A stretch of DNA of 64,000 nt from a bacterium (GCA_043803945.1 JAZDJN010000018.1:1-64000); one strand, 5' to 3'; numbered from the stretch's first letter, positions 3,301 through 30,282 are shown. Made by a program: numbers and translations. The notes: generated by a model from the sequence alone, not told the origin.

Positions 3301-3618
3301 TTCCGCGACCGGAAACTTGGGCCATTGGTTGGAACAAGAACGTGGGGCGGATTGGTTGGCATCTATGATTATCCCGTTCTCATCGATGGCGGAGCGGTGA
3401 CGGCACCACGCGTCGCCTTCTTCGAAAAGAACGGAAAGTGGGCGGTGGAGAATGAAGGCGTTCCTCCCGATGTCGAGGTAGAGCAATTACCCAAAGAAAC
3501 GGCTGGCGGGAAAGATCCACAACTCGAGCGGGCGGTCGCCGAAGCCTTAAAGCTTCTTGAAAAGAATCCGCTGAAGAAAATGGACCATGAGGCGTACCCG
3601 AAGCGGGTGAAGCAGTAA
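370..3618 (+). CDS. Tricorn protease homologue: N-terminal signal peptide, beta-propeller (TolB-like) domains, PDZ-like region and a C-terminal S41-type peptidase domain.
   Basis: 1082-aa ORF starting with ATG, preceded by aggag. The size, the N-terminal beta-propeller-like sequence (SPDGKWIAF) and the overall layout fit the tricorn protease family. Confidence 0.75.
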   Translation: MNRLINALLVFCGISLSLIAEESRLLRQPTVSATQIAFVYANDIWIVERTGGVARRLTTSEGAETEPRFSPDGKWIAFTGQYDGNTDVYLLSASGGDPKRLTFHPSADVVRGWTPDGKSVVFSSGRISAPVGFPRLWSIPVEGGFPQPLPMENAHKITFSQDGKRIAYLPFAEAFNVWRHYRGGRTSRVWILDLKTLELEKIPRDNSNDTDPTWIDTIVYFLSDRNSTMNLFSYDTKTNQIGQLTQHKDFDIRSASGCADAIVYEQAGWIHLFDPKTKSSKRVSITVNADLPWARPHFVKVASMIRNFELSPTGSRAVFEARGDIFTVPAEKGDVRNLTNSTGVHDRNPAWSPDGKSVAWFSDQEDEYQLMIGEQSGLTPPKVIKLGKAGFYYNPRWSPDSKKITFTDNHLTLWYLDVEDGKPIKIDADTYDHPQRTLDATWSHDSKWLTYSKRLDNHMHAIFVYSLAEKKVTQISDGLSDAISPAFDKSGKYLYFLASTNFAQNTGWLDMMSYDRPVTRSVYLTVLAKDTLSPFAPESDEEKIESKDTTAVKKDDAKDKKEKKDAAASKDLKIDFDGLDQRILAVEKIQSRNYVALDAAEGMIYYLESISNQTGLTLHFFDLKKREATQMLAGVNGFAISSNGKKLLYAASGNTYGIVDATKAAKVGDGKLKVDIMEMKIDPRAEWAQMFAEAWRINRDYFYDPNMHGADWKSIKEKYEPWVKYAGHRSDLSYILAHMMGELVVGHSYIQGGDAPAPPQVQVGLLGADYAIEGDYYKIATIYTGENWNPDLRAPLTEPGSTVTVGEYILAVNGKPLKVLMNIYSLFEGTAGKQTVLLVNTKASEQGARKVTVVPVSSENGLRQRAWIEGNRRKVDELSKGRLAYVYLPNTAGAGYTNFNRYYYTQMHKEGAVIDERYNGGGSAADYMVDMMNRPLLNYWATRDGKNFQTPTAAINGPKVMIINEHAGSGGDALPYYFRDRKLGPLVGTRTWGGLVGIYDYPVLIDGGAVTAPRVAFFEKNGKWAVENEGVPPDVEVEQLPKETAGGKDPQLERAVAEALKLLEKNPLKKMDHEAYPKRVKQ

Positions 3619-3626
3619 AGAAGGGG

Positions 3627-3680
3627 AGATCTTCCGAAGGTTATATAGAGACCTCATTGAGCCTTCGGAAGGTCTATCAG
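3627..3680. repeat. Single copy of the 62-bp hairpin repeat family (cttccgaaggttatatagagacctcattgagccttcggaaggt). It lies between the convergent 3' ends of the tricorn gene and the 527-aa membrane-protein gene, and overlaps the last 9 codons of the latter.
   Basis: Sequence identity to the unit of the array at 1-272. The inverted 11-mers are present. Confidence 0.85.
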
Positions 3681-5237
3681 TTCTTCTTCTTCTGATGTAA
3701 TCTTCATTCCGGGCAACACCAACATTGATAAGGCCAGGGAAAGGAATGGGTAGAAAATATCGATGAGAACATTCTGAGAGAAGAGATAGATGCTGGCCGC
3801 CAGAACAACAAGTCCCAGCACGAACATGAGGAACAGTGAGACCGCCTGTCTCAATCGCCAGACGATCAGTGCCGACAAACCGATGCACAGCAATGAAAGC
3901 CAGATGGAGCTGCTTTCGACAACCGTAAGAACATCGTTGTGCAGTAAAAAGGCCAGAGTTTTTGCATAAGCCCACGTTAGAAGATATCCTCGCTCTCTTG
4001 CCATGCCAAGATAATTCCAGTCGATCAGGATTATTTTGCCGCGATAAATCTCCGGTGTAATGTTTTCTATTGAAAACTCCTCCCAGCGCGAATCACGAAA
4101 ATGAAGTGTGTCCGAATTGAAATCCCTATATGCACTTATTGGTGAGAGGAGATACCACCAATCGACCCGGATTTCTCTCGGAAGATAGAGCCATCCATCG
4201 TGCGTTACCGGGAATTGATATGTTCCCAGAACAACATAATTGCCGCGCCGTCGTGCCTGCATGGTATCGGGATATCCATAATGCTTTTTAAGCAATTCCA
4301 CAGTTGCATCCGGGAGCTGATATTCCTCTTCATTGCCGGCACCCCATGCAACCCTATTGCCCGTTGGTTTTATCCGCATCAGCATCGATCTTGTTCCAAT
4401 ATCTTCAATCGACATTGAGTACATGCTCATTGGGATGTGCTTTGGGTCCACTGTATCCTCCTGAGCGATAAATGCATACGAGTAAGGATCCTGGAAAGTA
4501 AACACAGTGATTCCGAGTTGAGCCAGCCTGGCAAGTTTCGGACGCAATTTGTAGTGCATATCGCTGATATCGATTAGGATTGCTGTTGCACCGACCTCTT
4601 TCATTTTTTTTGCAATGCGGTAACAATCATCCAGATACTGCTTTTGATCATTGTTCACGGTATGGAGACCAAACCGCACTACCGGAATAGTATCTTTCCT
4701 GACCGTCGTTTTCTGTGCCTGCCCGCTTTTAAATCCCAGAGCAGTCTTTACTCCTTTTATCCCGCGTTCAACGGTTCGCTGGGTCTTTTCAATGAGGGCT
4801 GCTTCATTAAGCCTGCTGCTGATTTTCCAGCGATCCACCAGGTTTAAGCCCCCCATGAAAAGCATGAAGAGAGAGACGATGAATACGCCAATGACTATGC
4901 GAACACCGCTTCGCTGCATGCTCTGGAAATAAGCAGTCCGCACTGTGGCGGCTAATGATCCCTCATTGTTACTAAGCAAGTATTCAAGAACGCTCGGCAG
5001 TTTCTTTCGATGAACAAGAAGAGTTATGGCTATCGTAAGAAGCGGAAGAAAACAGATAAGCGAGAGAATCCAGAACGTCCATGGAATCCAGACATAATTG
5101 ATTTCATAGATACCATAGAAATCTCTGTGCGTCTCGATCATGGAATATTGATTTGTGAGAATAGCCATCAGAGCGAAGAATAACGCAAACAAAAAATATC
5201 TTCTTGCTCTCGTTCGAATATTCCTTTCCAGAGTCAT
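3654..5237 (-). CDS. Integral membrane protein with three N-terminal TM helices, a ~300-aa extracytoplasmic domain and three C-terminal TM helices. This is a CHASE2-like sensor topology with no output domain. It is the third gene of ECF sigma/anti-sigma module 1.
   Basis: 527-aa ORF lying 12 bp downstream of the anti-sigma gene. Hydrophobic segments are visible at both ends. It is a paralogue of the 518-aa ORF at 6942-8498. The CHASE2 assignment rests on topology and weak motif resemblance only. Confidence 0.5.
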   Translation of the reverse strand: MTLERNIRTRARRYFLFALFFALMAILTNQYSMIETHRDFYGIYEINYVWIPWTFWILSLICFLPLLTIAITLLVHRKKLPSVLEYLLSNNEGSLAATVRTAYFQSMQRSGVRIVIGVFIVSLFMLFMGGLNLVDRWKISSRLNEAALIEKTQRTVERGIKGVKTALGFKSGQAQKTTVRKDTIPVVRFGLHTVNNDQKQYLDDCYRIAKKMKEVGATAILIDISDMHYKLRPKLARLAQLGITVFTFQDPYSYAFIAQEDTVDPKHIPMSMYSMSIEDIGTRSMLMRIKPTGNRVAWGAGNEEEYQLPDATVELLKKHYGYPDTMQARRRGNYVVLGTYQFPVTHDGWLYLPREIRVDWWYLLSPISAYRDFNSDTLHFRDSRWEEFSIENITPEIYRGKIILIDWNYLGMARERGYLLTWAYAKTLAFLLHNDVLTVVESSSIWLSLLCIGLSALIVWRLRQAVSLFLMFVLGLVVLAASIYLFSQNVLIDIFYPFLSLALSMLVLPGMKITSEEEELIDLPKAQ

Positions 5238-5248
5238 CGCATATCCTC

Positions 5249-5698
5249 CTATTGAAGAAAGTGCTGCTGCCGATAAAGCATTTCATCATACTGCTGGCGG
5301 TCGACCTGTGACTGCTCTTGTTGATTTGTCGAAGCAAGCATTCCACCAACGAGAAACATCAGTAATAAGACAATGACCGAAGGCAGGGACACAGGGATCA
5401 TGCGGTCCCATGGTGGCCGTTGATACTGTGTAGGTCTTGATTCCTTCATCGCCCGAAGATGTCCCGGAATCTGTGTGTCGGTTGCCCAGAGCTGCCGGAA
5501 CACCTTCTCATCGACTTGCTCAGATAATGGAAGGGGTTTCCATGCCGCTGTTGCAACGCGGGTTTTGTTTGTTGAGCTATAGAATGTCCTGCACGCCTCG
5601 CATTGTGCAAGATGAGCAAACACCTCGGCATACCGTTGCTTACCAAGCCGGTTGTCAAATAGCGTGCTGATTTCCTGTTGATATGATTCACATGTCAT
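5249..5698 (-). CDS. Anti-sigma factor with an N-terminal zf-HC2 motif (HLAQCEAC) and a single C-terminal TM helix.
   Basis: 149 aa. The H-x3-C-x2-C motif and a hydrophobic helix (SLPSVIVLLLMFLVGGML) are present, and it sits directly downstream of an ECF sigma gene. Confidence 0.7.
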   Translation of the reverse strand: MTCESYQQEISTLFDNRLGKQRYAEVFAHLAQCEACRTFYSSTNKTRVATAAWKPLPLSEQVDEKVFRQLWATDTQIPGHLRAMKESRPTQYQRPPWDRMIPVSLPSVIVLLLMFLVGGMLASTNQQEQSQVDRQQYDEMLYRQQHFLQ

Positions 5699-5882
5699 AA
5701 ACTCACCTTTTGGTTTTGCGAACTAAGAAGAAGACAGATAAACCGCCCTGCCCGCCGCAAGCGGTGCGCAGGCAGGCAAGGGCGCCAAAACGCTAAATAT
5801 TCTTTTAAACTATCTGAGATTAAATATTTCATATACCTTCGTGTCTTGGCGTTCTTGGCGGCTCATTCTTTATCCTAGGCTC

Positions 5883-6422
5883 TCAATCTTTATAATACGT
5901 TAAAATCTTCTTCGCCAATTCTTTGCGTGCACGGAAGATGCGCGACTCCACAGCGCTGACGGAAACACCGGTGATCCCTGCAATCTCTTCGTACGACAAT
6001 CGCTCATATTCCAGCAGGTGTAATACTTCGCGATGTTCCGCTTTCAACCGGGTCAACATGACCTGCACCAATTCAATTTCCTCGGTGTGGACAAGTTGTT
6101 CATGAGGCGTCTCTTCATCGATAACCTCTACATCGTCAAGTGAACCGTTGCCTCTCTTTCGCCGTAACTGCGAGTAGACCTCGTTGCGGGCAATAGCATA
6201 GAGCCATCCCTTAACAGCCGCACAGTTGTGCAGTTGATCGAGTGAAGTAAGGAATTTCAAAAAAGTTGTCTGCACGGCATCCTCCGCACTCTCAACACAC
6301 TGGAGCAAACGGAGAGCGTAGTGATAGATTGCCTGTTTATGCCGGTTGTACAACTCGGCGGCAGCGCGGACATCGTGTTGCTGCGCTTTCAGTACAAGTT
6401 CACTATCGGTTGATTCTTGCAT
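5883..6422 (-). CDS. RNA polymerase ECF-type sigma-70 factor (module 1).
   Basis: 179 aa. Sigma-70 region 2 (YLYAIARNEVYSQLRR-like) and region 4 HTH (LSYEEIAGITGVSVSAVESRIFRARKEL) are recognisable. Confidence 0.85.
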   Translation of the reverse strand: MQESTDSELVLKAQQHDVRAAAELYNRHKQAIYHYALRLLQCVESAEDAVQTTFLKFLTSLDQLHNCAAVKGWLYAIARNEVYSQLRRKRGNGSLDDVEVIDEETPHEQLVHTEEIELVQVMLTRLKAEHREVLHLLEYERLSYEEIAGITGVSVSAVESRIFRARKELAKKILTYYKD

Positions 6423-6654
6423 ACGGAATGTTGCTCTTCTTGAAAAAGATCAATCCCGCACTGTCGGTAAACCGCTGAAGGTATCATAGGAACGCCGACT
6501 CTCCTTAAGCCCCTTTCTACTAAAGACGCCCGAAGGGAGAGAAACTTGCAGGAACGTAGGAAAAAATGTGAAGGAATGATAGGAAGAGCGTAGGAGAGTA
6601 AGAGAGTGAGAGGGTATGATGGGGAGGGTGGGTGGAGACAGCGAGACGGGGAGA

Positions 6655-6800
6655 AGGGGAGCTCGACCTTCGGAAGATTCTTCAGATTCATTCAGACCTT
6701 CCGAAGGTTATACCGAGACCTCTTAGAGCCTTCGGAAGGTTCAAGCATCTAGACCTTCCGAAGGTTATACCGAGACCTTTTAGAGCCTTCGGAAGGTTCA
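6655..6800. repeat. Two further tandem copies of the 62-bp hairpin repeat family, in the intergenic/5' leader region of the module-1 sigma gene.
   Basis: ccttccgaaggttataccgagacctcttagagccttcggaagg appears twice, with 10-20 bp variable linkers. Confidence 0.85.
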
Positions 6801-6846
6801 CTTTTGCTCGCACTCCTGTTCTCTGCAATCTGCCTTCTGCTGTCCG

Positions 6847-6950
6847 ATTAACAAGGGTGTCAGGAACCACTTCCTGACGCATCTATCGAAAATCCATTCC
6901 GGTCTACAAGCAGACTTTTCTTTCAATCTAAGTCAATCCGCTTAAGTATC
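6847..6950 (-). promoter_or_regulatory. Copy 1 of a ~105-bp direct repeat ('S' element) shared with 9598-9705. In gene orientation it contains GGAAG/GGAAC-N16-TTGTTAAT, a possible ECF-type promoter, plus the hairpin gtcaggaa-ccac-ttcctgac. It lies upstream of module 1, separated from the sigma gene by the 62-bp repeats.
   Basis: About 80% identity between the two copies over ~105 bp. Both copies sit 5' of an ECF sigma gene on the same strand. Confidence 0.35.
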
Positions 6951-8498
6951 GGCGCTGAAATAATTCCCTCCACTCCACAGATGTACATACTTCACAACAG
7001 AAAATAGCGGCAAAGAAATGATGACGGCAAGAAGGGGAAGCGTCATATCAATGAGGTAATTATTATTATAGAAAAGGTACGCCCCGCCGGAGAGAAGGAG
7101 AAGCGCAAGGGCAACAACCGAGAGTGAAGCAAGAAGGAAACGGAGATAGTATACCAACAATGCTGTGGCAAGAATACAAATTGCCATGACCCAATACGGT
7201 GTTTTTTCTGCAATAGTAATAAGCTTACCGCCAAGAATACTTTCAACCGCTTCCACATAACTGTATTTTCCCCCCCATCCTGAATACACATTTGAACGCG
7301 CTTCTTCTAAAAAAACGATCTTTCCCTGATACCGTTGCTCGTTATATCCCATTCGTAACCGCAATGGATCTTTTATGTACTCTTTCTGATTCTCTGCATC
7401 AATAACATTGTTTTTCTTTGTTGATGGCCTTATTTCCGCTTGAACAACAGAATGAAAGGCATCGTACTCGCTCAAGGGTGAAAAACTAGCCCGATAATAT
7501 ACTCGTTGATCTTTGGTAAGGGGCAAGACAACGTTGCCAAAGATGATCGCGTTATCTTTGCGGATGAGCGTTACCGTATCGGCATAGGATAAGTGTTTTC
7601 TGAGTAATTCAATTGCAATGTCTGGAACAGGTGCATCTCTCCTTCTTTCCCATTCCGTTGTCAATTCAAATGAAGACCGTATACTTTGCGGCACTCCAAA
7701 CGGTTGAATGCAGCTCAATGAATTACTCCAGCCGAGTTCACGAATCGGAATTGTCTTTGCCGCCATTGGAAGTGGTATCACTTTTCCAAGCGAATCAAGA
7801 AATAATAGTTTAGATCCATAATTCAATCCAAACACAACAATGCCCGTTTTAGCCAAATCCTTCATCAAGCGTATCCTCTCACCACGCATTTCTTCCGCTT
7901 GAATGAGTACTGCTTTCACTCCTATTTCTTTCAAAGCCAGAACTGCTGCAAGGTATGCTGCGTGATATTGCTCTTGGTCAAGACCGGCTGAAAAAATTGG
8001 TGCTACTTCGACTAAGCGTTGCTGGTTTTGATGTATTGCTTTCTTTTTCACGACTGACAGTAGTCTGTAGATATCGGCATTGGGAATTCGAAGATTGATG
8101 AAGCCAATTTGAACAATGGAACCCGCAATGAAGATCGCAGCTAAACCGGCAAAGGCAAGTTGAACACTTAGGCGGCTCAGATATGTAGAGATAGCATTTT
8201 GATAAGCGGTGACCTTTCTTTGGAAGCCTTCCTGGAAAAAACCCTCTAATGCCTCTGGTAATATTTTTCTCTCGTGCAGCACCGAGAGAAGCGTTCGAAT
8301 TACCGGCAGGAAACATACTATGGAGAACACAATAAAAACAACCGGCATCCACGAAATATTTGTCCTGACAGTTACTGGGAATGTACTTGTCCGGATGACA
8401 GAAACGTTAATTGTTAGAATTGCCAGTATCCAAAAGAAAAGAGTCAGCACAATGCAGAGAAGGAGAGCGCTTGTCGATAATTTGTTTTTTTGTTCCAT
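6942..8498 (-). CDS. Integral membrane protein, paralogue of 3654-5237 (3TM–loop domain–3TM, CHASE2-like topology). Third gene of ECF module 2.
   Basis: 518-aa ORF lying 14 bp downstream of the anti-sigma gene, with the same architecture as the 527-aa protein. Confidence 0.5.
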   Translation of the reverse strand: MEQKNKLSTSALLLCIVLTLFFWILAILTINVSVIRTSTFPVTVRTNISWMPVVFIVFSIVCFLPVIRTLLSVLHERKILPEALEGFFQEGFQRKVTAYQNAISTYLSRLSVQLAFAGLAAIFIAGSIVQIGFINLRIPNADIYRLLSVVKKKAIHQNQQRLVEVAPIFSAGLDQEQYHAAYLAAVLALKEIGVKAVLIQAEEMRGERIRLMKDLAKTGIVVFGLNYGSKLLFLDSLGKVIPLPMAAKTIPIRELGWSNSLSCIQPFGVPQSIRSSFELTTEWERRRDAPVPDIAIELLRKHLSYADTVTLIRKDNAIIFGNVVLPLTKDQRVYYRASFSPLSEYDAFHSVVQAEIRPSTKKNNVIDAENQKEYIKDPLRLRMGYNEQRYQGKIVFLEEARSNVYSGWGGKYSYVEAVESILGGKLITIAEKTPYWVMAICILATALLVYYLRFLLASLSVVALALLLLSGGAYLFYNNNYLIDMTLPLLAVIISLPLFSVVKYVHLWSGGNYFSADT

Positions 8499-22503: not shown

Positions 22504-22576
22504 TAGATCGAATCTCTTCGGTTACGAAGGCGGTGCCTTCTCTCGGTGTGCATCATCCAACCAGTTCCCCCATCTA
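22504..22576. repeat. Copy A (5' core only, ~70 bp) of a recurring non-coding element: tagatcgaatctcttcggttacgaaggcggtgccttctctcggtgtgcatcatccaaccagttcccccatc.
   Basis: About 90% identical to the first 70 bp of the copies at 23335 and 29022. It abuts the methyltransferase stop codon and lies 170 bp 5' of the 281-aa gene. Confidence 0.8.
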
Positions 22577-23257
22577 GCGGGAAACCATCTCACAAAAGAG
22601 GCTCGATTCATCTACTTCAACTATTGTCGTATTTACTCTAAGCCCTGTGGTGAGCGCAAGGAAACGATCTCGTCCTATTGTGGAAGCTGTAAATCCATCC
22701 TTGCAAACGATCAGCCCGTTCCCGGTCTTGTCAAAGTCGATTTCTCCCACGAGTCCGACCTCCGATTGTCGACGAAACCATTCGAGCCGGTATTCCCAGA
22801 ACTTGTCCGAGTAGCTTGAGAACAGGATGGTTCCGCCATGCCTGGCCACTCGAATGCTCTCCCGGAGAAGATGTTCCTGGTCGGCGTGGAAAGCCGATAC
22901 CCCGTTCTGGATGCAGATGACAACATCAAAAATTCCATCACGAAAAGAAAGCTGTGCCGCATCCATTTGGATCAAGAAACAGTTTGATGTACCGGGGAGT
23001 GATTCCTGACCATGCAGCAAACTGGAAATGGAGGTATCAATTCCCACAACCCATCGAGCTTTTTTGGCGAGTGAAGGAATTATCCGTCCGTAGCCACATC
23101 CTAATTCAAGCACCAGGTCGACTGCTCTGATCCTGTCGAGAACAAAGTTGAGCTCTGCCTCAAGATATTGTTTAACACGTTGCGGGGCAATGTCGTAGCA
23201 ACATTGCAGCCGTTCTGCGGAGAGTCTCTCAATGTAGTAATCATTCATACGACTCAT
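22574..23257 (-). CDS. Class I SAM-dependent methyltransferase (small-molecule type).
   Basis: 227 aa. Motif I is LELGCGYG and the post-I acidic residue is GIDTS. No DPPY/NPPW DNA-methyltransferase motif is present. Confidence 0.75.
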   Translation of the reverse strand: MSRMNDYYIERLSAERLQCCYDIAPQRVKQYLEAELNFVLDRIRAVDLVLELGCGYGRIIPSLAKKARWVVGIDTSISSLLHGQESLPGTSNCFLIQMDAAQLSFRDGIFDVVICIQNGVSAFHADQEHLLRESIRVARHGGTILFSSYSDKFWEYRLEWFRRQSEVGLVGEIDFDKTGNGLIVCKDGFTASTIGRDRFLALTTGLRVNTTIVEVDESSLFCEMVSR

Positions 23258-23334
23258 TTCTCACAACGTCTGTGTTCGCTGTTTTAAGACGGGGATGCCC
23301 GGTTGATCATAAATACGCTGTTGTCTTTTAATAG

Positions 23335-23568
23335 ATTACATCCATTCGGTTGCGAAGGGAGAACCTTCTCTCGGTGTGCATCATCCAACCCGTTCCCCCA
23401 TTAAACGATACATGATACTCTGCAACGTTAGCAGAATTGGGGGAGATTGTCAAGAAAATAGAAAAGGAGAAGCATGAAGTAGAAAGATTACAGAAGGCAG
23501 ATTGCAGCAAGCAGACCGTAGAAAGCAATGTCCGCCACACTTTTTGGCGGAGACATGAAGTGTGAAGC
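23335..23568. repeat. Copy B (full length, ~235 bp) of the recurring element. The 5' core is followed by a ccagttccccca/tgggggag long-range pairing, the motif agtagaaagattacagaaggcagattgcagcaagcagaccgtagaaagc, and the hairpin tccgcc-acacttttt-ggcgga.
   Basis: About 90% identical to 29022-29258 over its full length. It lies 78 bp 5' of the methyltransferase gene. Confidence 0.85.
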
Positions 23569-23702
23569 GGGTAGATGGATGCTCAACCTTGCCTGTCACA
23601 GACGCCAGGAATATACCTTGTCTCTTTCCCCTCTTGTCATGCCAGCGTAGGCTGGCATCCAGATAAAGGGCACTATAAAAGAAATCTTTTACAAAAACAT
23701 AT

Positions 23703-26111: not shown

Positions 26112-26894
26112 TTAGGCAACATCAAGCCTAAGCGCTAACTGGGTTAGGGCAAGACCACCCAGGTACCATATGCCCATTTCTCTTGCATATGCTTTTGCTA
26201 ATGGATGAAAATCTGAGGTCGTCCAAAATGCAAAAACAATTGGTTGAAGAGAGCCGACCTTCGAAGCATATGTTCTCTTAAGCAAAAAGGCCCTTCTTGT
26301 CGCTGATCCAATAAATTCTCGAACGTCTTTCTCGGTGATGTTATTTCCTGTTGCATATCGCTTAGCCTGACCAATTACTACTGCAAAAGCACCAGACGGT
26401 GCAGGACCGAAACGTGATAATGGAAGTTCGAAGCCAGTGAAATCAACTCCCTGATCATATGGTCCGCCCTCAACAATCGCCTTCGCACCAAGGGAATCAA
26501 GAATTCGTTTACAGAAATGTTCAAACTCTATTGGGGATCCTTTTTGAAGTTGGTTAAGAAGAATAATCTCGGGCCTATCGAGAATTTTGAAGTGTGTTGT
26601 AGAACCTTCGAGCGTAACAATAAATCGTGCTGTAATTCCGTCTGTGAGATTTTGATTAGTGATTGCATCGAGTTCGTGCACAATAAATGGCTCGATATGC
26701 TCAGATAATTCCGAGATTTCTTCAATAGATTTGCTAATTAATTTTGTACTCAAGGTTTCAAAAATAACGTTTCTCAATGATTTAAATTCTGTGTTTGAAG
26801 CCTGATCTGAAATCCAGAGTGCAACATCTTGGGGTCTAGGATCAGCCATACTATTCTCCAATAAGTCGTATTCTGTCTTCGAATACTCTCTCAA
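26112..26894 (-). CDS. Mrr-like restriction endonuclease domain protein. The C-terminus has PD-(D/E)xK features (GGPYDQGVDFTGFE … VVIGQAKRY). The N-terminal ~130 aa are of unknown function.
   Basis: 260 aa. The motifs resemble the Mrr catalytic domain. It overlaps the upstream ParB-like gene by 44 bp. Confidence 0.55.
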   Translation of the reverse strand: MREYSKTEYDLLENSMADPRPQDVALWISDQASNTEFKSLRNVIFETLSTKLISKSIEEISELSEHIEPFIVHELDAITNQNLTDGITARFIVTLEGSTTHFKILDRPEIILLNQLQKGSPIEFEHFCKRILDSLGAKAIVEGGPYDQGVDFTGFELPLSRFGPAPSGAFAVVIGQAKRYATGNNITEKDVREFIGSATRRAFLLKRTYASKVGSLQPIVFAFWTTSDFHPLAKAYAREMGIWYLGGLALTQLALRLDVA

Positions 26895-27960
26895 TTCGAT
26901 TTTTCAGAGAAGTCAAAGCAGCAATATCTTCTTCGCTTAGAGATCGTAATGAATCGGGCGATAGGGTTGCTAATACCGCTTGAGCCTGAATAATGGTTGG
27001 TTGCCAATCTTCTTGATGTTCAGCTTCAAATCGACCAAGCGCTCTTTCAATAGTACCGCCTTGAGAGCGAAATAGTGCCATTGCAACTTCATCATCAATA
27101 AATATTCCAAGTGATCTAACGCTTTTTGCTTCAGGCAGTTTGGGATCTCCTAACTCACCGTCATCGTCAGGTTCTCCAACCATCCAACTATAAAACTCTC
27201 TGAGATGAGAAGCGTTAGTAAAACGTCGTTCGTTGTCGCTCCAACTGAGCCATTCGCGTACGTTCGCTCGTTTGAAAACTTCTTCGAAATAACTATACTT
27301 ACGTGGAATAGCATATTCACTAAACTCATCATCTGCTTGCATTTGCTCGAGTGCTAGGTACGATCTCCAAAGTTGATTCGCTGTACGAGTAGAGAGTCCT
27401 AAACTTTGGCCAGCTTCCTGTGGACCTACACCTGCTTCACGTAATACGTGAACTGTACGAGCCTTTTGATAAGCACCCCATTCTTTGATACCTGATACAT
27501 GTCGTAATCCAGGAAGAATCCACTTTGCTGAGTCTGGTGCTTGATTGTCGTCGAGGACAAGAACTTCTAGATCGGTAAAATTGATAATTTGTTCGTCATC
27601 AAATGTTTCTCTACCTGTCTCGTGAAGTTCGATTAGCCATTTAAGGGCCGAAATTCTCCTATTGCCTTCGATGACAACAAATTTTTGTGCGTCGGGATTG
27701 CCGTGCCATGGACGCACAACAATTCTATCCATTGGAAGAAATCCTAGAGTTTTTATTGTATCTCTAAGCTCCGTGACTTCAAAATTCCCGCTTTTCATCC
27801 TCTCAAATGTATCACGCTGTACTCTATCCTCTGAAAATCGAATCTCTGGAACCACATCAACTGGTTCACCAAGCTCAGCAAAACGTGGATTGTTAGGATC
27901 CAATAACAGAGTATTTAAATTAACGCGTCTTGGTATCATAAGGCTATAAAGATTTTGCAT
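26851..27960 (-). CDS. ParB/Srx-like nuclease-domain protein (N-terminus) with an HTH-like segment and a C-terminal extension.
   Basis: 369 aa. VIEGNRRISALKWL fits the ParB N-terminal GxxRxxA box. GQSLGLSTRTANQLWR is HTH-like. Confidence 0.5.
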   Translation of the reverse strand: MQNLYSLMIPRRVNLNTLLLDPNNPRFAELGEPVDVVPEIRFSEDRVQRDTFERMKSGNFEVTELRDTIKTLGFLPMDRIVVRPWHGNPDAQKFVVIEGNRRISALKWLIELHETGRETFDDEQIINFTDLEVLVLDDNQAPDSAKWILPGLRHVSGIKEWGAYQKARTVHVLREAGVGPQEAGQSLGLSTRTANQLWRSYLALEQMQADDEFSEYAIPRKYSYFEEVFKRANVREWLSWSDNERRFTNASHLREFYSWMVGEPDDDGELGDPKLPEAKSVRSLGIFIDDEVAMALFRSQGGTIERALGRFEAEHQEDWQPTIIQAQAVLATLSPDSLRSLSEEDIAALTSLKNRIERVFEDRIRLIGE

Positions 27961-28124
27961 AATGTTCCTCTAATAAATTGTGAGTATTAATAAATTCTTT
28001 TGAGCACACCGTCAAATAACGTCTGGCACAAATTCAATAATATTATTATTCACAAAGTGACCCTCGGTGATGCATTTGTTAGAAAGCGTTTGCGAGTCAA
28101 CGCTCTGATAATTATTTCCCCTTC

Positions 28125-28823
28125 TCACTTTACTTTCCCGTGGTGATATCGCTGCCACGGTGTCTCTTTTGTGAGTTTATGAAGATGAGCGGCAACCCGG
28201 TTGTTTGAAATAACTGCTAAACGTATAATAAAGCCAAGATGATATTTAATTACTGACTTGTGAACCCTCTTCGTGGTTGAAACACGATGTGCAATACTGC
28301 CTCTCAAAGTAATTAGATCTGAAAGTTTCTTCTGTGACTTTTGAAAAGTCATATTAAACCAGTGCCAGTTTTCAGACAAACGTGAATAGCCAATGAGGTT
28401 CTCAAATAGGTGGTCGATCATATCGGCGCGAGGTGTATTAAAATTGTTAATGTACCGTCCAAGAGTCTCTTCCTTATGATCATTTAAGATTTTGATCCAA
28501 CCTTTTCCAGCTAGCTTCCAAACCAAGCGCTCATCAGCAGCAGATTTCAATTCTTTCGAAGCTAAGACTAAAATCTTGCTTGGGAATACATCGGGTTTCT
28601 TGGCTTTTACTAAAAGAAATTCAAAAGCAGCCTTACCGAGATCCTCAATATAGGCTTCCCAACATGCAACCAGAAGTACTACACAACTTTTATTGATTAC
28701 TTCAACCTTAGATTTATAGCCAGGCTTTTTCCCAGATATCTGCTCATGGATATCAAGCAGCCTCCTTACTTCTTTTAGATTCTGGCGAAGGTTCTCTATG
28801 TGGGTGATGTGCTTGCTTATCAT
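28125..28823 (-). CDS. Candidate HEPN-domain protein (abortive-infection-like), with an R-x4-H-R motif (LRGSIAHRVS).
   Basis: 232 aa, all-alpha-like composition. The Rx4H motif lies in the C-terminal third. The call rests on the motif only. Confidence 0.35.
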   Translation of the reverse strand: MISKHITHIENLRQNLKEVRRLLDIHEQISGKKPGYKSKVEVINKSCVVLLVACWEAYIEDLGKAAFEFLLVKAKKPDVFPSKILVLASKELKSAADERLVWKLAGKGWIKILNDHKEETLGRYINNFNTPRADMIDHLFENLIGYSRLSENWHWFNMTFQKSQKKLSDLITLRGSIAHRVSTTKRVHKSVIKYHLGFIIRLAVISNNRVAAHLHKLTKETPWQRYHHGKVK

Positions 28824-29021: not shown

Positions 29022-29258
29022 TTTAGATCGAATCTCTTCGGTTGCGAAGGCGGCGCCTTCTCTCGGTGTGCATCATCCAACCAGTTCCCCCATCAAACGC
29101 TACATGATACTCTGCAACGTTAGCAGAATTGGGGGAGAATGTCAAGAGAATGGAAAAGGAGAAGCAGGAAGTAGAAAGATTACAGAAGGCAGATTGCAGC
29201 AAGCAGACCGTAGAAAGCAATGTCCGCCACACTTTTTGGCGGAAACATGAGGTGTGAA
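29022..29258. repeat. Copy C (full length) of the recurring ~235-bp element.
   Basis: About 90% identical to 23335-23568. It lies 46 bp 3' of the ORF6N gene end and ~200 bp 5' of the HEPN-like gene. Confidence 0.85.
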
Positions 29259-29303
29259 TCTGGCAGTGTTTGAGAGGGAAAATCTTTTCAATGCAGCTAT
29301 AGA

Positions 29304-29825
29304 TTAATTGCTTTCCAGCCCGAATCCAATTGGGCGTCTCTTCGGCTCAGGAGGTTTCATAAGTTCGCGAATCGCTTCGAATACTATTTTAAATTGCACG
29401 TCATATTTTCTTTCTAATTCATTCAGCTTGTGAGCTAAGTTTTCATGCGTGGCAAGTATTTGACGCAGATGCACAAACGTACGCATGATTTCAATATTCA
29501 CTCTGATTGCACGCTTACTCCTCAAGACGCTTGAAAGCATTGCGACTCCTTGCTCGGTAAACGCGTAGGGAATGGCTCTGCGAAGACCACCCCAACTTGA
29601 AGTCACAATCTGTGATTTCAACGTAAGGAACTCTTCCGAGGATAATTGGAACATAAAATCGATCGGAAAACGGTCAGCGTTTCGTTTCACTGCCTGAACC
29701 AACACGCGTGGCGCAACCTGGTATAATCGGGCCAGGTCTGTGCTGAGCATGACCTTCTCACCACGCAGGAAATAGATACGTTGTTCGATTCTTTCCTTCG
29801 ATAAAATAGACTGTTTTGTTTTCAT
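29304..29825 (-). CDS. ORF6N-domain protein (KilA-N-related DNA-binding domain, often phage or mobile-element associated).
   Basis: 173 aa. [43 protein letters not shown] … [20 protein letters not shown] matches the ORF6N domain. Confidence 0.7.
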
Positions 29826-30016
29826 CGACGTTCATTGACCTCTCATTATTATCCTATGGTGAGATCCGTTTCGCTGGATTCAACTGACCCTAATAAATCG
29901 CAGTTGCCTCTCCGTCCAATATGATATGGGCATATCGATTATGAACACTCTCCGGCTATATCTCCAGAGTGGTATAGAAATCTAAATGCTGTGTTTTTGT
30001 CTTTTGAGAATGATTT

Positions 30017-30090
30017 ATTCGGTTGCGCGGGTGTCAGTTTCTCTCGGTGTGCACCATCCAACCAGTTCCCCATCAAACGCTACACGATGC
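30017..30090. repeat. Copy D (5' core only, diverged) of the recurring element, ~190 bp 5' of the ORF6N gene.
   Basis: ttcggttgcg…tttctctcggtgtgcaccatccaaccagttccccatcaaacgctaca aligns with the cores of copies A–C. Confidence 0.7.
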
Positions 30091-30282
30091 TGAATAATGA
30101 TAGGAGAAAACAAAGCCAATGTTAAGATCACCGCAACAGAGATCGTTAAGAAAGTTTTCTATAGTTACCCGGTTTGAAGGCTCTGGCCACCCGCGTTCGC
30201 GGGTGAAACACGTTCCTCTTTGGTTTTCATCTATTTTTTCTCTAAACTTTCGCCAACAACATCAACTTGGAAAGGATGCCTC

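Follow-up and report, generated by a model that had tools for sequence, protein, structure and literature searches.

In a 64,000-nucleotide stretch of bacterial DNA (GCA_043803945.1 JAZDJN010000018.1:1-64000, hereafter the window, with positions counted from its first letter), we identified a self-contained, horizontally mobile cassette at positions 26112-27960 that consists of two genes, one for a ParB-like protein and one for a nuclease of the Mrr type. The two genes almost certainly form one unit: in 75 of the 80 related loci analysed, an Mrr-like gene of like orientation comes straight after the ParB-like one, and pairwise identity in one protein tracks that in the other (Pearson r = 0.92). 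We give a probability of roughly 55% to the reading that this cassette serves in the defence against, or restriction of, foreign DNA. The original prediction for this region had joined the pair with an upstream HEPN gene in a possible split GmrSD-like restriction or abortive-infection module. The open reading frame (ORF) listing confirms that all three genes lie on the minus strand, and the two genes of the pair do belong together, but the HEPN gene is an independent, solo neighbour outside the cassette. The main features of the locus are as follows.

26851-27960, minus strand: ParB-like gene, 369 amino acids (ORF listing)
26112-26849, minus strand: Mrr-like nuclease gene, 245 amino acids from ATG 26849
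26112-26894, minus strand: longest ORF of the nuclease, 260 amino acids from TTG 26894
27961-28124, minus strand: spacer upstream of the ParB-like gene, 164 bp, 35% GC, with a GAGGA Shine-Dalgarno sequence
28125-28823, minus strand: HEPN gene, 232 amino acids (ORF listing and Pfam)

Pairing of the ParB-like and nuclease genes across genomes

A scan of one genome per species, covering 185,579 species, yielded 178 relatives of the ParB-like protein, and the best 80 of these 178 loci were analysed; at E<=1e-30, the family comprises 363 clusters (50% identity). The downstream nuclease was sought with phmmer and then with an iterated hidden Markov model (HMM). Where the pair is present, the intergenic gap is mostly between -8 and +17 nt, and the two genes are apparently translationally coupled. 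As for the five loci in which no directly adjoining nuclease was recovered, the contig clearly ends just after the ParB-like gene in L007 and L039; in L049 the nuclease lies about 1.3 kb downstream, apparently after an insertion; and no nuclease ORF could be detected on the short contigs of L017 and L047. The loci come from the Acidobacteriota, Bacteroidota, Ignavibacteria, Proteobacteria, Chloroflexota, Verrucomicrobiota, Cyanobacteria, Firmicutes and Planctomycetota among bacteria, and include two archaeal metagenome-assembled genomes, one of Hadarchaeota (L057) and one of Aenigmatarchaeota (L072). The pair was also found in eight additional metagenome loci, among them that of its closest relative, and in two of four viral-contig matches.

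The two proteins diverge together and at different rates, with a mean identity of 38% for the ParB-like protein vs. 23% for the nuclease. Within the nuclease, the winged-helix domain is the most variable part (17% identity, vs. 27% for the catalytic domain). Because the key residues described below are at least 93% conserved in 71 pairs despite these low mean identities, the sequences indicate that the active sites of both proteins are under selection. All-vs-all BLAST clustering of three neighbours per side revealed no third conserved gene, as no family occurs in more than 9 of the 80 loci. One of the recurring neighbour families (cluster 2), made up of large proteins, was observed within three genes of the pair in eight of the 80 loci, including L020, L044, L050, L052 and L058.

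Like most of the pairs in relatives, the ParB-like and nuclease genes of the window abut. The 44-bp overlap that had been ascribed to them is present only if the longest ORF, starting at TTG 26894, is taken as the nuclease gene. In the family alignment, nuclease homologues begin at the methionine that is residue 16 of this ORF; the NCBI gene model of the nuclease has 245 amino acids (P0241); and the DNA at the junction reads ...GGAGAA TAG T ATG GCT..., with a GGAG Shine-Dalgarno sequence within the end of the ParB-like gene. Since the alignment, the NCBI model and the Shine-Dalgarno sequence agree, the most likely start of the nuclease is ATG 26849, one base past the TAG stop codon of the ParB-like gene. 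The spacer in front of the ParB-like gene is probably the cassette's own promoter region; it is AT-rich, as had been described, and the length of 165 bp first given for it is to be corrected to 164 bp. No operator or parS-like palindrome was found in common among the regions upstream of the ParB-like gene at 14 loci.

Some copies of the cassette look decayed, with the Mrr-like gene split into two ORFs in L013 and L064, and the ParB-like gene frameshifted or truncated in L021, L035 and L043. L163, L164 and L174 carry more distant homologues of the ParB-like protein, at about 25-28% identity, without an Mrr partner. In L163, on plasmid p187_1 of Bradyrhizobium sp. 187 (3584-6842), three tandem ParB-like paralogues are followed by a DEAD/DEAH helicase. 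In L164, on a replicon of Vibrio campbellii (4890-7027), the ParB-like gene abuts an unannotated ORF of 338 amino acids, for which neither Pfam nor PADLOC gave a match, and a phage-type integrase and a D12 adenine methyltransferase lie in the flanks. In other clades, other genes may partner the ParB-like module.

Domains and conserved motifs of the two proteins

The assignment of the upstream protein of the pair to the ParB-like proteins holds for its fold, its motifs and its helix-turn-helix (HTH), and fails at the level of Pfam: no match above threshold was obtained for the 369-amino acid protein, and the gathering score of ParB_N (PF02195) was not reached. Sub-threshold matches to ParB_N were found in 14 of 22 family members (best E 0.0098) and to HTH_23 and Sigma70_r4 in 10-12 of the 22, while TIGR00180 (parB_part) aligns with residues 60-112 at a weak E of 0.022. 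In an AlphaFold2 model built from 22 homologues (predicted local distance difference test score, pLDDT, 84.9), a mixed alpha/beta N-domain is followed by a low-confidence loop (150-156), an HTH region and a helical C-terminal domain. As modelled, the N-terminal domain has the ParB/Srx fold, and the top structural matches of the protein are ParB/Spo0J, KorB, PadC and pNOB8 ParB. A sequence search of the PDB with the profile of the ParB-like protein returned an HTH repeat only. The domains and motifs of this protein are listed below; motif coordinates here and for the other two proteins were verified by translation.

Residues about 1-145: ParB/Srx N-domain
27880-27900, minus strand: DPNNPRF box, residues 21-27, at least 93% conserved among 71 members from both clades
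27655-27669, minus strand: EGNRR box, residues 98-102, followed by A105
27475-27525, minus strand: residues 146-162, with the invariant flexible loop LPGLRHVSGIKEW (about 148-161), which contains LPGLRHVSG
Residues 163-208: HTH (DSSP helices)
Residues 219-366: all-helical C-terminal domain

The DPNNPRF box is presumably the counterpart of the PNPxQPR motif that opens canonical ParB N-domains. The VIEGNRRISALKWL box, on which the original prediction had relied, is present, with E98-G-N-R-R102 and A105 at least 93% conserved among the 71 members, and the HTH said to follow it is seen in the model. As a sequence motif, EGNRR..A fits the GxRRxxA pattern of the nucleotide-binding arginine patch of ParB, 'GERRxRA', and the protein thus carries an arginine box of the GxxRxxA type that marks the ParB/Srx superfamily. 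In the LPGLRHVSGIKEW loop, G151, R153, G157 and W161 are at least 93% conserved in the 71 sequences, and no other segment of the AlphaFold2 model falls under a pLDDT of 50. The loop may serve as a switch, as a catalytic element or as a surface for contact with the partner.

The downstream protein matches Pfam Mrr_cat (PF04471) with an E of 2.6e-10 (40.9 bits vs. a cutoff of 21), confirming it as an Mrr-type nuclease, and a precomputed PF04471 match exists for nearly all of the nuclease homologues listed. It has a restriction-endonuclease-like fold, and its best structural matches are AF1548, MspJI and AspBHI. Its features, in the numbering of the 245-amino acid form, are the following.

Residues about 1-95: winged-helix-like domain, variable
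Residues about 96-245: Mrr_cat PD-(D/E)xK domain
26361-26456, minus strand: catalytic core, D132-x-G-x-D136 ... Q161-A-K163

The core contains the D...(D)...(Q/E)xK residues of Mrr-type endonucleases: G134, D136, Q161 and K163 are at least 93% conserved in the 71 partners, and D132 is invariant within the close clade. The PDB sequence search with the nuclease profile gave no match, and neither an Mrr_N nor an SRA-like domain was detected in the protein. For some orthologues, weak matches to the PADLOC model mREase_IV were obtained.

Related systems, genomic contexts and possible function

Overall, the cassette is an uncharacterised, widespread variant of a theme in which a ParB-superfamily module is joined to a nuclease. 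The GmrSD-like assignment that had been made fails on both of the domains that define that system, DUF262 (GmrSD_N) and the HNH domain DUF1524, as the partner nuclease has a PD-(D/E)xK Mrr_cat domain instead of the latter. What the cassette has in common with the GmrSD, BrxU and SspE systems (DUF262 NTPase plus DUF1524 HNH) is a ParB-superfamily module of a nucleotide- and DNA-binding type together with a DNase, a split two-gene form, the lack of a cognate methyltransferase and an occurrence in defence islands; GmrS and GmrD can be encoded by separate genes (PMC4619093). The claim that a ParB-like protein with an Mrr nuclease in trans belongs to no named system stands, in that none was found in the literature searched, which was incomplete, so that this is no proof of absence. 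The kind of combination is not unprecedented: a comparative genomic analysis of 2013 had already noted ParB-superfamily (DUF262) domains joined to HNH, PD-(D/E)xK (as fusions) or HEPN nucleases in defence loci (PMC3632139).

In its logic, the cassette resembles McrBC, with an NTPase/DNA-binding subunit upstream, a PD-(D/E)xK nuclease downstream and no methyltransferase. McrBC is composed of a DNA-binding GTPase and a PD-(D/E)xK nuclease from adjacent genes. However, McrB is an AAA+ GTPase and does not have a ParB fold, McrC lacks a DNA-binding winged helix of its own, and there is no sequence relationship between the two systems. With Mrr, MspJI and AspBHI, the nuclease of the cassette shares an Mrr_cat domain with D...QxK and an N-terminal domain of a DNA-binding type, but these enzymes are single polypeptides, whereas the cassette nuclease is strictly coupled to its ParB-like partner. 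Canonical ParB-CTPase clamps have the same domain order, an N-domain followed by an HTH, and the GxRRxxA box. In contrast to these, the cassette has no ParA partner or partition context, its ParB_N matches stay below threshold, its C-terminal domain is a different one, and the ENLQR-type box is replaced by the invariant LPGLRHVSG. Neither an adjacent parA nor a partition or plasmid context that would make it a ParABS system was seen. Menshen (the ParB-DUF262 sensor NsnA, the ABC ATPase NsnB and the effector NsnC; PMC12065111) likewise has a ParB-superfamily protein as a proposed sensor and a nuclease in trans, but it consists of three genes, requires an ABC ATPase, contains a DUF262-type domain and has effectors that are mostly RNases.

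Among PADLOC models, PDC-M38A is the nearest to the ParB-like protein (E 5e-46), with a match to positions 10-361 out of 715 in the profile, and the same partial coverage was found in all six family members tested, from both clades (E about 1e-45). The protein thus aligns over its full length with the N-terminal half of PDC-M38A, whose profile has about 350 further positions that are not in the ParB-like protein. Because only positions 10-361 match, and do so alike in both clades, PDC-M38A looks, from these profile alignments, like a sister family that carries about 350 residues more, as an extra domain, and the cassette is not a member of PDC-M38. The Mrr-like partners have no match to PDC-M38 models, matching only PDC-S02 or mREase models. 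The PDC set comprises 145 candidates embedded in BREX, DISARM and type I restriction-modification (RM) loci, in which PDC-M38 denotes two-family cassettes; one of the families is shared with HEC-01, a cassette that contains an ABC ATPase (Payne et al., 2024, bioRxiv 10.1101/2024.01.29.577857). We also considered whether the C-terminal half of PDC-M38A corresponds to the Mrr partner or to the partner of the remote relatives, and rejected both, as there were no matches. In addition, over its N-terminal 100-170 residues the ParB-like protein shows homology to the N-terminal part of PD-Lambda-5_A (E down to 6e-13), a component of PD-lambda-5, which is a validated compacted RM and abortive-infection system of E. 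coli with a methyltransferase (PMC9519451). The cassette differs from it in lacking the methyltransferase domain, in the rest of the protein and in the partner gene; with no such domain and no match to component B, it does not belong to PD-lambda-5.

Pfam annotation shows that the upstream neighbours of the cassette are variable, and the pair is often found in defence islands or mobile elements. PADLOC, applied to the immediate neighbours on both sides, identified pAgo, PbeA/PbeC, DndH, DndA/SspA and MADS proteins in a minority of loci, along with type II, IIG and III RM proteins and mREase_IV, also in a minority. Judging by the PbeA/PbeC, DndH and DndA/SspA matches, some cassettes may lie inside loci that are related to phosphorothioate modification. 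The range of surroundings is illustrated by the annotated loci below.

L166: integrase, type III RM, the pair, ImmA/IrrE-type gene
L167: methyltransferase and Mrr, the pair, STAND NTPase, SRA-HNH
L165: integrative and conjugative element (ICE) with genes for a relaxase, a type IV secretion system (T4SS) coupling protein and a resolvase
L168: insertion sequence (IS) element and RadC
L161, L169 and L170: plain housekeeping surroundings

No ParA-type family was found among the Pfam-scanned upstream neighbours or the genes of eight annotated loci. The pair never adjoins parA, and its contexts vary; it is not confined to housekeeping loci such as those of chromosome partition, which would have counted against the original prediction. 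It is nearly absent from collections of mobile replicons: the ParB-like family gave two weak matches in 72,556 plasmid records, none in 50,697 GenBank phage records, and four in 2.9 million viral contigs (IMG/VR). A cognate methyltransferase conserved beside the pair was likewise not found, which is compatible with a dependence on modified DNA and does not prove it.

From the catalytic residues, the pairing and these contexts we infer a role in the restriction of foreign DNA that might proceed as follows. The ParB-like subunit would bind DNA via its HTH and a nucleotide, either cytidine triphosphate (CTP) or another nucleoside triphosphate (NTP), via the GxRRxxA box. The nucleotide would act as a switch, and the ParB-like subunit, possibly in a physical complex with its partner, would license or position the Mrr-type nuclease, so that the labour would be divided between the two proteins. 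Which targets are preferred would depend on the nuclease's variable winged helix; as with Mrr and MspJI, the preference may be for modified DNA. Since no methyltransferase is conserved next to the pair, self-protection would derive from the specificity for the target or from gating by the ParB-like subunit. By analogy, the cassette could be considered a type IV-like, NTP-regulated restriction module and a functional counterpart of McrBC or of a split GmrSD. If it does serve in defence, prokaryotic immunity would gain a two-gene module that is compact and widespread and has no name so far, and the ParB nucleotide-switch fold, whose best-known roles are in chromosome segregation and gene silencing, would also be found to control a restriction nuclease. 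The pair is directly testable, being about 1.85 kb long and offering two clear sites for mutation, the GNRR box and the D/QxK active site.

Several points weigh against a defence role. No validated defence family matches either protein, and the likeness to PDC-M38 is a likeness to a candidate system with a different partner gene. Nucleotide binding is predicted from the motif, and the placement of LPGLRHVSG at the position of the ParB 'ENLQR' catalytic box comes from a reading of the sequence, in a loop with a pLDDT below 50. Evolution is slower in the ParB-like protein than in the nuclease, which would be unusual for a sensor of invaders. Finally, given the housekeeping contexts (L161, L169 and L170), the enrichment in defence islands is only moderate among the sampled loci.

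More speculative, and well short of an even chance in our judgement, is the further proposal that immunity has recruited, in the ParB-like protein, a CTPase-type DNA clamp comparable to ParB, KorB and PadC, which would load or slide on foreign DNA and gate the Mrr-type nuclease. If so, the cassette would stand for NTP-dependent restriction of a new class, different from both McrBC (AAA+) and GmrSD (DUF262/HNH) and present in many bacterial phyla as well as archaea, and the invariant LPGLRHVSG loop would act as the switch or as the surface that meets the partner.

The main rival to a defence role, which we consider unlikely, is that the pair constitutes a toxin-antitoxin or addiction module, in which the ParB-like protein would neutralise an Mrr-like toxin and autoregulate the operon, stabilising the carrier DNA or triggering abortive infection. 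An upstream gene for a DNA-binding protein that overlaps or abuts a downstream nuclease gene is the typical order of a type II module, and such a function would also suit the solitary insertions of the cassette among housekeeping genes, the copies on an ICE or integrase islands, and the decayed copies with split or frameshifted genes (L013, L064, L021 and L043). However, the putative antitoxin would be a protein of 370 amino acids that is better conserved than the nuclease and has invariant, enzyme-like motifs, whereas classical antitoxins are small and evolve fast. There is also no conserved operator upstream, and the cassette is nearly absent from plasmids, on which addiction modules thrive.

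A non-defence role in the mobile elements themselves appears less probable again. Candidates for it are entry exclusion and fertility inhibition, for which the ParB/Srx protein Osa is a precedent, site-specific DNA processing, and the segregation of integrative elements. The copy in L165 lies inside an ICE beside the relaxase, coupling protein and resolvase genes, other copies adjoin integrases or an IS element, and ParB/Srx proteins are known to mediate inter-plasmid conflicts (Maindola et al., 2014, cited in PMC10853773). Most copies, however, have no mobile-element genes in the sampled flanks, a ParA partner is missing, and the family is close to absent from plasmid and phage collections. 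An accessory function in housekeeping DNA repair or chromosome partition is very improbable: a ParB fold with an HTH is common to partition proteins and PD-(D/E)xK nucleases such as NucS work in repair, but the distribution is patchy (178 matches in the whole species scan), the neighbours vary, the islet is low in GC, neither a parA nor a parS context was observed, and the spread, which crosses bacterial phyla and reaches archaea, resembles horizontal transfer.

The HEPN gene and the surrounding islet

The 232-amino acid protein encoded upstream of the pair is of the HEPN type, as had been recognised, with a match to Pfam HEPN_RiboL-PSP (PF18735) at E 4e-17 (63.2 bits vs. a cutoff of 28.4). 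Its Rx4HR motif, R174-x4-H179-R180 (RGSIAHR, 28304-28284, minus strand), is invariant in 24 homologues, as is an ACWE motif. The match to PF18735 and the invariant Rx4HR liken it to RiboL-PSP HEPN proteins and to solo HEPN RNases related to AbiD and AbiF; no PADLOC model matched it. Its independence of the cassette was seen from both sides. In HMM searches of ORFs, the HEPN family was absent from the 80 ParB-like loci, from the other sampled loci of the pair and from the viral contigs, and the ParB-like and Mrr-like families were absent from 80 metagenome loci in which close homologues of the HEPN gene occur. These 80 HEPN loci also share no conserved neighbour; the sole recurring one is an RsrI/MboII-type DNA N6/N4 methyltransferase, in five of the 80. 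Because the HEPN gene and the pair are absent from each other's loci, the three-gene module as first proposed gives way to a two-gene cassette with a solo HEPN gene beside it.

It is therefore hardly credible that the three genes form one system, with the HEPN RNase as an additional effector or an abortive-infection arm. All three genes lie on one strand here, no terminator separates the HEPN and ParB-like genes on that strand, and an 'operon with ParB' is listed for the RiboL-PSP HEPN family (Anantharaman et al., 2013, PMC3710099), but no such arrangement was seen in the 80 loci of this subfamily, and the pair's nearest relative (82% identity) carries LptF/LptG upstream, where the HEPN gene sits in the window. 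Adjacency of a HEPN gene in one genome should thus not be read as membership of a system.

Scans of the minus strand between the HEPN and ParB-like genes found no intrinsic terminator. A GC-rich hairpin, CCGTGGTGATATCGCTGCCACGG, at 28138-28164 overlaps the 3' end of the HEPN gene, and scores as a terminator on the plus strand only, where no gene precedes it. Since this hairpin is non-terminating on the minus strand, read-through from the HEPN gene into the ParB-like gene is possible in this genome.

The three-gene stretch has a GC content of 41%, vs. 47% for the window, and lies in an islet flanked by housekeeping peptidase genes, M28 on one side and S46/S9 on the other. No att-like direct or inverted repeats were found tightly flanking the three genes. 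The islet apparently houses three independent small modules, namely PDC-S05 (ORF6N), the solo HEPN gene and the ParB-like/Mrr pair. It had been described as an island bounded by repeated elements and an ORF6N gene. Both the repeats and the ORF6N gene exist, but the long copies of the repeat do not tightly bracket the three genes, as the left one lies beyond the M28 peptidase gene. The elements concerned are listed here.

29304-29825, minus strand: ORF6N-domain gene, 173 amino acids (Pfam ORF6N E 1e-30; PADLOC PDC-S05 E 3.6e-55)
29024-29266: right long copy of the intergenic repeat, 243 nt
23332-23574: left long copy, 91% identical to the copy at 29024-29266
22504-22579 and 30005-30108: core-only copies

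All four copies of the repeat in the window fall inside 22.5-30.1 kb. The 243-nt repeat has no match to an Rfam family, and consensus folds of the four copies on both strands gave no convincing covariation, four copies being too few. Each copy sits between minus-strand genes and shares a conserved core of 76 nt (…GGGGAACTGGTTGGATGATGCACACCGAGAGAAGG…CCTTCGCAACCGAA… on the minus strand), and the long copies open with a terminator-like hairpin directly after the preceding gene.

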